Assembly: GCA_963733055.1 (NCBI GenBank)
Contig: CAVTBR010000003.1
Span: forward strand, 1-64,000
Source: Candidatus Bathyarchaeota archaeon
GTDB lineage: Archaea > Thermoproteota > Bathyarchaeia > 40CM-2-53-6
Direction: 5' to 3'
DNA length: 64,000 nucleotides
Every line of letters starts with the position of its first letter. Within the stretch, counting starts at the first letter, position 1. Shown here piece by piece: positions 21,275-23,488 of the stretch. The translations under genes and the position numbers were made by a program. The notes under the pieces were generated by a model. The model searched no databases. It had not been told where the DNA came from and saw only the letters and a list, made by a program, of their open reading frames with translations.

Positions 21275-23488
21275 TTACTCCATAAAGTCTTCTGCTTTCT
21301 GTGATTCGGGTGGTAGTCCCTTTCGTTTTCGTATGTTGCTAATGACTGTATTGACTAGGGATTGTGGGACGGGGGCCCAGTGTGCGAACTCAAGCCCCCA
21401 GAACGCTCGTCCTTGGGAGGCACCGCGCATAACCTCGGATAGGTCGAAGCTTTCCGCCGTCGGCAGTTCGCCGACCACGTAAACCAAGTGTCCTCGTTGG
21501 TCTACGGATACGATCTTACCTCGCTTCTGCGAAATCACGCTCGTTGCGGCTCCTAAGAGTTCGGGTGGAACCTTGACCGTGATTCTTTGGATTGGTTCTA
21601 GGAGGACGGGGTTGTCGTTGAGGAATGCTACGAAGAATGCTCGTCTGCTCATGGGCATAATTTGGGCGGGCCCTCTGTGGACTGGGTCTTCGTGTAGGGA
21701 AATGTCGGTGATCTTCACCTTAATTCCCCTCATTTGTTCATAAGCGAGGGGTCCCTCCTTCAAGCCCCATCGGTACCCTGCTATGACCATGTCCTTCACT
21801 TCCTGAACGTACTGCGCCCCTTTCGTTACCTCCACTAGCATGTTGCTTCCTTCATCGATGCTCCAGACTCCCTTTGCCTCGTCGGGAGGCCATCCTTCGG
21901 CGCGCAGCATCTTCGCCATCTCGGCCTTGTCTTGGTATTCCCCAATCTTTCCCTCCTTGATCATATCGACAATCTTATCGGGTAGGGGTTCGACGCTGAG
22001 GTAGATCTTGTTGTGCTTATTCGGCGATTTGCCTTCAACCGGCCCAGCAGGGCCTCGTATGCTCTCACGGTAGATTACGATTGGTTCGGAGGTCACGATC
22101 TTGAGCCCCGTCTTGGTGATCAGGGTATTTGCGATTTCCAAGTGCAGCGTTCCCATTCCTGCAATAAGGTATTCACCTGTCTCCTCGTTGATCTTGGTCA
22201 CGAGGTTCGGGTCTTCTAGGCTCAGCCTTCTAAGAAGTTCAACGAGTTTAGGAAGGTCTCTGCTGAATTTCGGCTCAACGGCCATGGTGACGACTGGTTC
22301 GGTCACGTAGTGAACCGCTTCGAATGGTGCGATGTCTTTGATGGTTGAAAGCGTCTCACCCGCCTTAGCTGATTCAAGCCCGAGGAGGGCTGGAATGTTA
22401 CCCGCGCTTATCGTTCCCACAATCTCTCGGTAGGGCCCCATGAAAAGGCACACTTGTTGAACTCTCTGATCGACGCGAGCACCGAGAAGATGGAATGTTG
22501 ATCCCTCCGTAATCGTGCCCGAAAACAATCTACCGCTCGCAACAACTCCAGCCTGTGGGTCGACGACGATGTTCGTTATGGCCATGACCACCGGTCCGTT
22601 GTCATCGCAGTTGAGCATCGCCTTGCCGACGTCACTGTCAATGTTCCCCTTCCAGACTCTGGGAACGCGGTACCTTTGTGCAACGTGTGGAGGGGGCATC
22701 GCTTCAACCGCCATGTTCAGAACGGCATCATGCAATGGTGCTTTTGTGGTCAGTTCAGTTACTTTGTCGTTCAGGTAGGCGTCTACCACGTCAGAGAATC
22801 TTACGTTCTGCTCTTTGGCGATCTCTGCGTTGAACCCCCACTTGTCCTTAGCGGACCCCATAGCAACTGTGTTGCTTGCGAAACTAACCTTCCACTTCTC
22901 TCGGTACTCGGGTTCCGCGTAGAGTTCGATGAGTCGATTGAATTCTGTGATAATCCTCCCGATTCTCTCCTGTATCTGGTCGGGAGTTAACCTCAGCTCT
23001 TTGATGAGTCGGTCGATTTTGTTAATGTAAAGCACGGGCCGAACTCGTTCTTCAAGCGCCTGCCTCGTGACGGTCTCGGTCTGAACCATAATCTCCTCCA
23101 CGGAGTCAACTACAACTACTGCTCCATCGGTGGCTCTGAGGGAGCGTGTTACTCGGCCTGAGAAGTCTACGTGGCCGGGTGTGTCGATGAGGTTGATGAC
23201 GTATGGGGTGTTGTTTCGTTCGTGGAGTAGGCTTACGTTGGCGGCTTTGATGGTCATTTGCCGCTTTTGCTCTTCTTCCATGTAATCGAGGGCTAGCGCT
23301 GTGCCAGCCATACCTGGTGACAGAAGACCGGCAGCGGCAAGGAGGGAATCGCTCATCGTCGTCTTACCGTGATCGACGTGGGCGATGATGCCCATATGTT
23401 CCGGACGCGGACTACTCTACGCCTTTCGGATCTGTTCCTTGTTCGCTATGATCTTCTGTATTTCAGTCGTGGACTTGTAACGGGGCAC
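21275..23488 (-). CDS. fusA: elongation factor EF-2, two exons: complement(join(21275..23397,23425..23488))
   Basis: GTG 23488 gives MPRYKSTTEIQKIIANKEQIR; exon 2 has AHVDHGKT, DTPGH, NKID and the diphthamide loop HEDPVHRGPAQI. Confidence 0.97.
23398..23424 (-). other. 27-nt BHB intron in EF-2 pre-mRNA
   Basis: AGGCGUAGAGUAGUCCGCGUCCGGAAC; helix UCCG/CGGA, bulges AA^A and AC^A; contains an in-frame UAG; splicing yields AUC CGA AAU AUG GGC (IRNMG). Confidence 0.88.

Follow-up and report, generated by a model that had tools for sequence, protein, structure and literature searches.

A 27-nt bulge-helix-bulge intron predicted in the single aEF-2 gene of a Candidatus Bathyarchaeota archaeon

We found that the only aEF-2 gene of a soil archaeon of the Candidatus Bathyarchaeota is in all likelihood (roughly 90%) interrupted by a real, 27-nt bulge-helix-bulge (BHB) intron. 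The gene lies on the minus strand of the analysed stretch of 64,000 nt (hereafter the window; contig CAVTBR010000003.1 of assembly GCA_963733055.1). A BHB intron within the EF-2 coding sequence was the core of the original prediction, and this reading is now backed by 67 homologous introns, covariation of the paired positions, intronless alleles, the presence of one EF-2 gene and the presence of EndA and RtcB genes in the genome.

Rereading of the minus strand gave a GTG at 23488-23486 followed by CCC CGT TAC AAG ... GAA CAG ATC CGA (exon 1), after which the strand continues AAG GCG TAG AGT AGT CCG CGT CCG GAA CAT and then, from 23395 on, ATG GGC ATC ATC GCC CAC. The GTG exon, the 27 extra nucleotides and the in-frame UAG had thus been read exactly to the base. 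The open reading frame listed in the window, 21275..23395 on the minus strand, is an intact 706-codon frame (706 aa) that begins within exon 2. When 23424..23398 (27 nt) are removed in silico, the sequence becomes ATC CGA AAT ATG GGC, which reads I-R-N-M-G, with ...ATCCGAA joined to ATATGGGC... at the predicted exon-exon junction (in DNA letters). The predicted spliced coding sequence comprises 64 + 2123 = 2187 nt and would encode 728 aa. The insert is located past base 1 of an Asn codon and two codons ahead of the P-loop, and past the 27 nt the EF-2 frame resumes as (N)MGIIAHVDHGKT. The features of the locus are as follows.

23425..23488, minus strand: aEF-2 exon 1, with the GTG start, 21 codons MPRYKSTTEIQKIIANKEQIR, and A 23425 as base 1 of the split Asn codon
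23427..23430, minus strand: central helix, 5′ strand UCCG, in exon 1, formed by bases 2 and 3 of the Ile codon plus bases 1 and 2 of the Arg codon (from the fold)
23424..23426, minus strand: bulge 1, AAA, with predicted 5′ cleavage at 23425/23424; a cut there restores the frame
23398..23424, minus strand: predicted 27-nt intron (from the sequence, the spliced reading and covariance model R1)
23417..23419, minus strand: TAG stop in the exon-1 frame, third codon past Arg21, within the inner stem
23404..23423, minus strand: inner stem-loop (h'), GGCGU A GA [GUAG] UC C GCGUC (from the fold and covariation)
23400..23403, minus strand: central helix, 3′ strand CGGA, in the intron (from the fold and covariation)
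23397..23399, minus strand: bulge 2, ACA, with predicted 3′ cleavage at 23398/23397 (from the fold, the spliced reading and relatives)
21275..23397, minus strand: aEF-2 exon 2, opening with bases 2 and 3 of the Asn codon and continuing as MGIIAHVDHGKTT... as far as the stop
23393..23396, minus strand: weak outer helix, 3′ strand UAUG, pairing with CAGA at 23434-23431 (A-U, G.A mismatch, A-U, C-G)

Exon 1 is a homologue of the N-terminal part that is contiguous in EF-2 lacking the intron. In solved aEF-2 chains, the counterpart of residue 1 of the frame 21275..23395 is found at residues 17-48, so this frame lacks the N-terminus unless exon 1 is added. The whole genome contains a single full EF-2 match, and a second functional EF-2 copy was rejected on that basis. 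Because of the in-frame stop in the insert and the lack of another EF-2 gene, full-length EF-2 could be made only after splicing of the mRNA.

The minimum free energy fold of 23385-23440 contains the 4-bp helix UCCG/CGGA, the AAA bulge, an inner stem of GGCGU/GCGUC plus GA/UC and a GUAG loop. The extension of the inner stem includes an A.C mismatch, and the outer helix consists of one A-U pair, a G.A mismatch and then A-U and C-G. Because that outer helix amounts to a lone A-U followed by a mismatch, the BHB is slightly relaxed. The description of the motif as textbook therefore stood for the 4-bp helix, the 3-nt bulges and the inner stem, but not for the outer helix, which is weak, and the A.C mismatch had been overlooked. 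The cut positions that we applied follow from PMC4090602, where the central helix contains the first two bases of the anticodon.

Fold energy was rejected as evidence for an intron, as the z-scores of the region, -0.45 and -0.32, are unremarkable. The number of BHB-like motifs (defined by a 4-bp helix, two bulges of 3 nt, an inner stem of at least 5, an outer helix of at least 1 and an intron of at most 60 nt) was rejected likewise: the minus strand of the window contains 163, and 20 dinucleotide shuffles gave 137 on average, so such motifs are common by chance. The chance of finding one at the exact position, estimated from the shuffle comparison, is approximately 5e-5 per pair of cut sites. 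The exact position of the BHB thus exceeds chance, and its conservation in relatives adds to this. Searching the genome with covariance model R1 returned 23386..23440 on the minus strand as the sole match (E 5.3e-14), and Rfam and ARAGORN searches of the 64-kb window gave no matches. Comparative evidence, rather than the motif alone, is decisive for the EF-2 intron.

We sampled 41 genomes of relatives, which yielded 30 EF-2 loci, 25 of them with a visible P-loop motif. All but one of these 25 have an insert at the same site (24 loci; L019 is contiguous), and cuts at the BHB positions restore MPR[YF]K...IRN[MI]GIIAH in 24/24. In total, 108 intron-bearing loci from many separate assemblies were fetched, corresponding to 67 distinct sequences; because of their shared descent, independent support is smaller than these counts suggest. 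The labels of the carriers are Bathyarchaeia (many lineages) and Nitrososphaeria (several deep lineages). In each of the 67 sequences the insert occupies the identical site, is 25-54 nt long and has 3-nt bulges. Bulge 1 is AAA in 55, AAT in 6, TAA in 5 and AGA in 1, and the central helix is TCCG/CGGA in 48, TTCG/CGAA in 11, TCCG/CGGG in 5, TTCG/CGAG in 2 and TGCG/CGCG in 1. The original prediction had each bulge cut behind its second nucleotide, which restores both the frame and the conserved Asn; applied in silico to the homologous introns, the same cut regains ...[IVL]R[ND].G..AH in 67/67.

The length of these introns shows no preference for multiples of three (remainder 0 in 18, 1 in 29 and 2 in 20), so that the frame is shifted in 49/67. 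An in-frame stop is present in every one, always within six codons, and in 62/67 it falls at the same codon as the TAG of the window (TAG 47, TAA 9, TGA 6). An intein or another translated in-frame insert was rejected, since none of the 67 inserts is readable through and their length is not tied to threes. A true, open-frame intein was observed in two relatives, 11 codons downstream of the intron site.

Covariation was assessed in two alignments. In alignment A1 (24 sequences), 92.5% of cells are paired, versus 19-44% when the partners are slid; seven pairs changed on both sides, and none of 500 shuffles reached the covariation score. In alignment A2 (46 sequences), paired cells amount to 85.7% versus 24-50% with slid partners, and the central helix is paired in 184/184 cells, with pair 12-57 being CG in 41 and UA in 5. 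Changes on both sides were found for 6/8 inner stem pairs in A1 and 7/8 in A2, and RNAalifold recovered the same helices unaided. For the outer helix in A2, pair 10-62 is AU in 42, GC in 2 and other in 2, pair 8-64 is AU in 45 and GU in 1, and pair 7-65 is CG in 14 and unpaired in 32/46. The columns of the outer helix are also constrained by coding. The flanking-helix pattern of the predicted intron fits the relaxed HBh'-type motif named in the available text of PMC4090602. All 67 intron-bearing sequences use CGN for the Arg that precedes the splice site, whereas 24/43 intronless ones use AGR.

In the bypass of phage T4 gene 60, a stop codon follows close behind the take-off region together with a local hairpin, the take-off and landing codons are matched and the gap is fixed. 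The TAG three codons past Arg21, located in a stem, resembles this arrangement and would be accounted for if the ribosome crossed the gap by programmed hopping or frameshifting, with no RNA splicing. However, the gap varies from 25 to 54 nt across relatives, matched take-off and landing codons are absent around it (...CGA AAG GCG TAG ... CAT ATG), the conserved feature is a BHB geometry whose cut sites yield the exact junction, and the same geometry recurs in cbf5 of the same genomes. We therefore regard bypassing or frameshifting as extremely unlikely and favour removal of the insert from the RNA.

Intronless EF-2 alleles match the predicted junction, and when they are aligned to model R1, the intron positions come out as deletions. 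Two genomes of the same family (G127 and G172) have a contiguous EF-2 without an insert, and eight metagenome contigs contain ATCCGAAAY-ATH-GG, the form predicted for the junction. These eight, of 1.8-85 kb, were recovered with an order-level junction probe; none is transcript-like, and they represent genomic intronless alleles of other lineages with 61-72% identity. A degenerate exon-exon junction probe for the own genus had no matches in metagenome contigs, and a search for sequencing runs turned up none from RNA. The proposed comparison of EF-2 5′ ends across relatives thus revealed both presence/absence differences and compensatory changes. Judged from the EF-2 gene tree, the predicted intron is old and widely shared, and appears to have been lost several times by precise deletion.

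Exon 1 is coding and under purifying selection. Across the 67 distinct relatives, its pN/pS is 0.305 in-frame, whereas the two alternative frames give 1.34 and 1.59. Database EF-2 calls in close relatives start at MGIIAH (706/707 aa), start after the P-loop (693/694 aa) or carry wrong-frame N-termini, which bears out the suspicion that annotation hides the intron. Among the 120 database protein matches listed, none of at least 85% identity has the joined N-terminus; the matches of 728-730 aa are intronless alleles with 75-81% identity.

The many 706/707-aa calls would be correct if the insert were never removed, exon 1 gave a micropeptide of 23 residues and an N-terminally truncated EF-2 were made separately from Met 23395. 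This ATG is present in the window, as it is in the own genus. We consider a lack of removal very unlikely. As its first complete codon, exon 2 has ATA in 18, ATT in 17, ATG in 16, ATC in 10, TTT in 4, GTC in 1 and ACT in 1 of the 67 sequences, and because this codon is ATG in only 16, most relatives lack a start codon for an unspliced protein that includes the P-loop: 51/67 have neither ATG, GTG nor TTG there, and the next Met lies past the P-loop, as in the 693/694-aa calls. Moreover, the residues of exon 1 are joined to the P-loop in solved aEF-2 chains and in intronless relatives, and both the covariation of the helices and the CGN constraint on the Arg codon would be left unexplained. The possibility that the insert stems from faulty assembly or sequencing, or that the gene is a pseudogene in decay, is effectively refuted. 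The source assembly has 3 contigs and an estimated contamination of 5.28%, but an insert at this position is shared by 108 loci of many assemblies, in line with the earlier claim that it is no homopolymer sequencing error, the 706-codon frame of exon 2 is intact, the gene is the sole EF-2 copy and exon 1 is under purifying selection. Intron removal by splicing thus remains our preferred reading.

Two matches to the EndA family (PF01974) above the cut-off and one to RtcB (PF01139, 576.8 bits) were found in the own genome, the two EndA subunits being encoded around C3:228623-228877 and C1:1338756-1338995. The first EndA protein scores 83.9 bits for TIGR00324 endA and is alpha-like, with 3p1z_B, 2cv8_A and 3ajv_B as best PDB matches; the second lies beneath the TIGR00324 cut-off and is beta-like by weak, sub-threshold 'subunit beta' matches alone. 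The genome is thus predicted to encode a two-subunit EndA plus RtcB. From the presence of these genes, we infer that cleavage and ligation take place in the cell and are carried out by EndA and RtcB. Excision by other machinery, or joining of the exons by another ligase, would be compatible with an enzyme assignment drawn from gene presence only. An intron of 27 nt is far too short to be self-splicing. ATP-dependent RNA ligases also exist in archaea, but the element by which archaeal EndA recognises its substrates is defined as the BHB (PMC4090602), and we judge the involvement of other enzymes highly unlikely.

The cbf5 gene of the own genome, used as a positive control, has a 19-nt BHB insert that splits the catalytic Asp codon. 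In relatives, 29/30 cbf5 loci carry an insert of 17-23 nt at this codon; of these inserts, 27/29 satisfy a strict BHB test, with GAT or GAC restored. Because its host gene is EF-2 and not cbf5, the EF-2 intron represents a separate intron family. A genome-wide search combining BHB motifs with ORF joining (145,279 motifs, 2,661 candidates) did pick up the cbf5 site and was too unspecific for the identification of new introns. ARAGORN run with introns on the genome made 33 tRNA calls, 29 of them intron-flagged and several absurdly long, a hint that tRNA introns are common.

In the proposed mechanism, UCCG at the end of exon 1 would pair with CGGA at the end of the intron in the primary transcript, leaving a 3-nt bulge on each strand. 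We predict that the two-subunit EndA cuts each bulge past its second nucleotide and that RtcB ligates the exons, and the product would be a 728-aa EF-2 reading ...KEQIR-N-MGIIAHVDHGKT. Because the stop lies three codons into the intron, unspliced RNA would give only a 23-residue peptide or otherwise, at most, an N-terminally truncated protein.

It is possible, though we hold it to be doubtful, that the intron acts as a control point of ancient origin, retained by selection and predating the split of Bathyarchaeia and Nitrososphaeria, with EF-2 supply tracking tRNA-splicing capacity. The sole translocase would then be made only once EndA and RtcB have processed its mRNA, the stop kept three codons into the intron (62/67) would discharge ribosomes from unspliced RNA, and the system would be an archaeal counterpart of HAC1/XBP1-type splicing control. 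Because some relatives have an intein in the P-loop, the same dozen codons would there need protein splicing too. A coupling of translation capacity to tRNA splicing by the intron is speculation. The conserved stop suggests an interplay between ribosome and splicing endonuclease, and the two such introns in one genome, in EF-2 and cbf5, suggest that further ones exist.

If the EF-2 intron is spliced as predicted, endonuclease-type mRNA splicing can be obligatory in core archaeal gene expression, beyond one curious gene, as the intron affects the sole gene of a translation factor that is universal and essential, and does so across large uncultivated groups. The resulting annotation error is widespread in EF-2, which serves as a phylogenetic marker. 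With a short RNA substrate and natural intron-bearing and intronless alleles, the EF-2 intron is also a tractable test case. PMC12918454 reports on deeply sequenced soil RNA together with complete genomes of Bathyarchaeia.

No earlier report of an EF-2 intron turned up in our literature searches. In the available text of PMC7714728 and PMC10485636, cbf5 is the only BHB-split archaeal coding sequence named, and HVO_1309 is the leader intron named. The EF-2 intron would thus be new, as a second archaeal coding-sequence BHB intron beside cbf5.

Experimental demonstration of splicing has been reported for the cbf5 pre-mRNA intron of Crenarchaeota (Watanabe 2002; Yoshinari 2006; Yokobori 2009, PMC2738675), and its regulatory role is described as an open question in PMC7714728. 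Both introns are short BHB introns in a coding sequence, occur in lineages with a two-subunit EndA, split a functionally critical region and vary in presence with lineage-specific loss. In contrast to cbf5, the EF-2 intron resides in a translation GTPase two codons before the P-loop and occurs in lineages labelled Bathyarchaeia and Nitrososphaeria; the exon ahead of it is very short, with 21 codons, the stop inside the intron is at a fixed codon (62/67) and splicing is here predicted from the sequence.

The 46-nt BHB intron of HVO_1309 in Haloferax volcanii, detected as circular RNA and cut in vitro (PMC7714728), is likewise a short BHB intron in an mRNA, as predicted for EF-2, and an archaeal EndA substrate. 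Because it is located in the 5′ UTR, it does not interrupt a reading frame, unlike that of EF-2, and its host has an EndA of the alpha2 type (PMC10485636), whereas a two-subunit EndA is predicted for the host of the EF-2 intron. The introns of archaeal tRNA and rRNA share the same motif, a 4-bp helix between two 3-nt bulges that contain the splice sites, and 27 nt lie within the range of 11-129 nt given for tRNA introns (PMC4090602). Because the host RNA of the EF-2 intron is a messenger, ribosomes and endonuclease would compete for the same RNA, unlike in tRNA and rRNA, and the exon strand of the central helix also codes.

In eukaryotes, HAC1/XBP1 mRNAs undergo unconventional splicing by IRE1 and RtcB or tRNA ligase as a regulated stress switch. 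This splicing is mentioned in PMC13149111. Common to both systems would be a spliceosome-independent short mRNA intron, cleavage of a small RNA structure by a protein endonuclease, joining of the tRNA-ligase type and a splicing event that changes which protein can be made; unlike this regulated stress switch, the EF-2 intron would involve another endonuclease and another motif.

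The mechanical ORF scan returned a 706-aa frame at 21275..23395 on the minus strand (N-terminus MGIIAHVDHGKTT), whose first residue corresponds in alignment to position 17-48 of solved aEF-2 chains (27 in 5h7j, 24 in 9ou7), so that about two dozen N-terminal residues are absent from it. All letters of the sequence quoted in the original prediction, which had placed a 27-nt BHB intron at 23424..23398, were confirmed in the window. The coding segments and the elements of the minimum-free-energy fold of 23385-23440 are listed here.

From 23488, minus strand: exon 1, beginning with GTG, GTG CCC CGT TAC AAG TCC ACG ACT GAA ATA CAG AAG ATC ATA GCG AAC AAG GAA CAG ATC CGA
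After the exon-1 CGA, minus strand: AAG GCG TAG AGT AGT CCG CGT CCG GAA CAT
After this CAT, minus strand: ATG GGC ATC ATC GCC CAC GTC GAT CAC GGT AAG ACG
23417-23419, minus strand: in-frame stop codon of the exon-1 frame, in the same column in relatives
23430-23427 and 23403-23400, minus strand: central helix, UCCG/CGGA
23426-23424, minus strand: bulge 1, AAA
Between the central-helix strands, minus strand: inner stem GGCGU/GCGUC, then GA/UC enclosing GUAG
23399-23397, minus strand: bulge 2, ACA; closing pair A23431-U23396, a G.A mismatch next, then A-U and C-G

The central helix, both bulges and, apart from an A.C mismatch, the inner stem agree with the textbook fold that had been claimed, whereas the outer helix, with its G.A mismatch, makes the predicted structure a slightly relaxed BHB. 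Because the fold energy is unremarkable (z-scores of -0.45 and -0.32) and BHB-like motifs, counted with G.U pairs allowed, are only somewhat more frequent on the window's minus strand (163) than in 20 dinucleotide shuffles (mean of 137), the motif by itself is no proof. The same count corresponds by our arithmetic to a rate of ~5e-5 per exact pair of cut sites, which makes a motif exactly at the protein-repairing position unlikely by chance. The main evidential weight comes from relatives.

Our sample comprised 41 genomes from the window's genus, family and order; 37 gave an EF-2 match, and 25 of 30 EF-2 loci contained the P-loop motif. An insert of 25-44 nt separated ...IR from N[MI]GIIAH in 24 of these 25; the only contiguous locus, L019, reads ...KEQIRNIGIIAH. 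Cutting after nucleotide 2 of each bulge, the rule that had been proposed to restore frame and Asn in the window, opened MPR[YF]K...IRN[MI]GIIAHVDHGKT in all 24. Among named GenBank genomes, the closest relatives were MAGs labelled 'Candidatus Bathyarchaeia/Bathyarchaeota'; the same-site insert also occurred in hot-spring 'Bathyarchaeia' bins and in four records, L070, L078, L080 and L081, whose labels are Nitrososphaeria, Nitrosopumilales, Nitrosomirales or Thaumarchaeota and which all have a UUCG/CGAA central helix. An artefact or a pseudogene is contradicted by this recurrence in many assemblies, by the intact exon 2 and by the single copy of the gene, with one full EF-2 match in the window's own genome (2.88 Mb, 3 contigs, 96% complete).

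The pooled set of all loci comprised 108 intron-bearing loci, reduced to 67 distinct sequences of 25-54 nt. Intron length modulo 3 was 0 in 18, 1 in 29 and 2 in 20, and every intron contained an in-frame stop, and none of the 67 could be read through. A ribosome bypassing the gap would be a further way to join the two parts, and it is contradicted by the variable gap length and the conserved BHB geometry.

The 5′ ends of fusA in related MAGs, whose comparison had been suggested at the outset, yielded both intron presence or absence and compensatory stem changes. In 24 aligned sequences, 92.5% of cells held standard pairs, compared with 19-44% when partners were slid by 1-3 columns, and seven pairs changed on both sides (28 cells); none of 500 shuffles reached the covariation score, a control that overstates covariation because the sequences are kin. 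Unprompted, RNAalifold recovered the central helix and inner stem. With 46 sequences, 85.7% of cells were paired (24-50% when slid), the central helix had no unpaired cell and showed U-A instead of C-G in 5 sequences, and 7 of 8 inner-stem pairs were altered on both sides; the outer-helix columns are also under codon constraint.

Exon 1 is coding and requires exon 2. Across the 67 sequences its pN/pS was 0.305 in its own frame versus 1.34 and 1.59 in the others, its most variable positions were third codon positions, and the peptide it encodes matches the N-terminus of EF-2 from intronless genes, where it is contiguous. The Arg codon that places two bases in the central helix was CGA or CGT in 67/67 intron-bearing sequences; among 43 distinct intronless ones it was AGA in 21, AGG in 3, CGA in 12, CGC in 6 and CGT in 1. 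The first complete codon of exon 2 was ATG in only 16/67 and otherwise ATA, ATT, ATC, TTT, GTC or ACT, so most relatives could not start a P-loop-bearing protein there. These missing start codons, together with the helix covariation and the contiguous homologues, contradict the alternative that the transcript stays unspliced and a truncated EF-2 is made. We infer that the EF-2 mRNA is spliced in the cell.

A stop occupied the third codon after Arg21 in 62/67 introns (TAG 47, TAA 9, TGA 6), and its identity switched among these three while adjacent stem positions covaried freely, which suggests selection for a stop as such. A putative regulatory role of the intron and its conserved stop is attractive.

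R1, a covariance model of the intron site, matched the window's genome once (23386..23440, minus strand, E 5.3e-14). It matched 27/151 class-sampled genomes, mostly from the same order as the window, with 2 belonging to other families of the class, and 20/151 phylum-sampled genomes, 17 of them outside the class. The match lay immediately upstream of the EF-2 P-loop in 41 of 43 loci from both searches; of the others, L122 has the P-loop followed by an intein, and L158 is weak (E 0.008) and lacks the P-loop. R1 had no match in two genera of the family to which the window belongs (0/6 and 0/2 genomes), and two genomes from these, G127 and G172, have a cleanly intronless EF-2. Aligned to R1, intronless alleles carry 5 bases in place of 35 intron positions. 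The predicted spliced-mRNA junction, ATC CGA AAY ATH GG, is present in intronless alleles of several lineages (metagenome contigs L160-L167, and loci L067, L173 and L174) and is the sequence expected after precise loss of the intron. In a FastTree phylogeny of 84 distinct full-length EF-2 proteins (45 with and 39 without the intron), a midpoint-rooted gene tree from which short-flank loci were excluded, at least 5 changes of intron state are required, and intron-bearing rows form basal branches on both the Nitrososphaerota and the Bathyarchaeia side. This pattern fits an intron of old origin that was repeatedly and precisely lost.

In L159 (G001:C20:31800-34700, positions 809-865 and 856-2901), from a genome of the same genus, EF-2 carries the BHB intron (E 1e-17 with R1) together with an intein of ~610 aa after GIIAHVDHGK, starting CVSEDT... 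and ending ...VVHN ahead of TTMSD, called on what we take to be intein boundary motifs; RNA splicing and protein splicing would thus both be needed within about a dozen codons. An intein is also present in EF-2 of L122 (genome G158). In L079 (a region of GenBank JARVKA010000001.1 labelled Nitrososphaeria), six-frame translation at about position 544 gave EF-2 as IRNFGIIAHVDHGN and then a stop, with a frameshift, an assembly error or a further P-loop interruption as candidate causes.

As had been anticipated, annotation hides the intron, with relatives' EF-2 stored truncated or with wrong-frame N-termini. In the 120 best-matching database proteins, the gene calls for close relatives (87-93% identity) are 706/707 aa long and begin at MGIIAH or, in other cases, 693/694 aa from MSDSLL without the P-loop; P0064, P0074 and P0077 have wrong-frame N-termini, and entries of 728-730 aa (75-81% identity) are intronless alleles. 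Literature covered mostly as open-access main texts contained no account of an archaeal EF-2 gene with an intron, and an earlier mention is possible. In the passages covered of an EF-2 evolution paper (10.1101/262600), 'intron' occurs only within a reference title, and PMC7714728 names cbf5 as the only further reported BHB intron besides its HVO_1309 leader intron.

The window's own genome has two EndA-family genes. The first protein (185 aa) scores above the endA cut-off, with closest PDB chains 3p1z_B, 2cv8_A and 3ajv_B, which we take to be crenarchaeal EndA chains. The second (188 aa) has only weak 'subunit beta' matches and, as read from its sequence, lacks the His of Tyr-His-Lys, the EndA catalytic triad. 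This suggests a two-subunit type. Such enzymes are assigned in the sections of PMC4090602 covered here to Crenarchaeota and Thaumarchaeota and linked to relaxed motifs. An RtcB gene is present. ARAGORN found no tRNA within the 64-kb window; run genome-wide with introns allowed, it flagged 29/33 tRNA calls as intron-bearing. This figure is made unreliable by implausible kilobase 'introns' in several calls, but it hints at heavy tRNA intron use.

The cbf5 gene of the same genome, outside the window, is split in the same way as EF-2. Its CBF5 profile matches fall into adjacent pieces in different frames (positions 6-74 and 70-322). The insert is given here.

G000 C2:202851..202833, minus strand: 19-nt insert in the catalytic Asp codon of GGTL-D-PKVTG

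The site (C2:202833-202857, minus strand) has the structure CCCU / AGA / GAC...GUC / GGGG / CAA. Relatives carry a 17-23 nt insert at the same codon in 29/30 loci, and 27 of these 29 passed a strict BHB test with GAT or GAC restored; the cbf5 comparison covers loci L168/L169 and L177-L205. Because the EF-2 cut rule restores the cbf5 Asp codon, it also repairs a gene for which splicing is documented in other archaea, and the classical crenarchaeal cbf5 intron is thereby extended to these Bathyarchaeia-labelled genomes.
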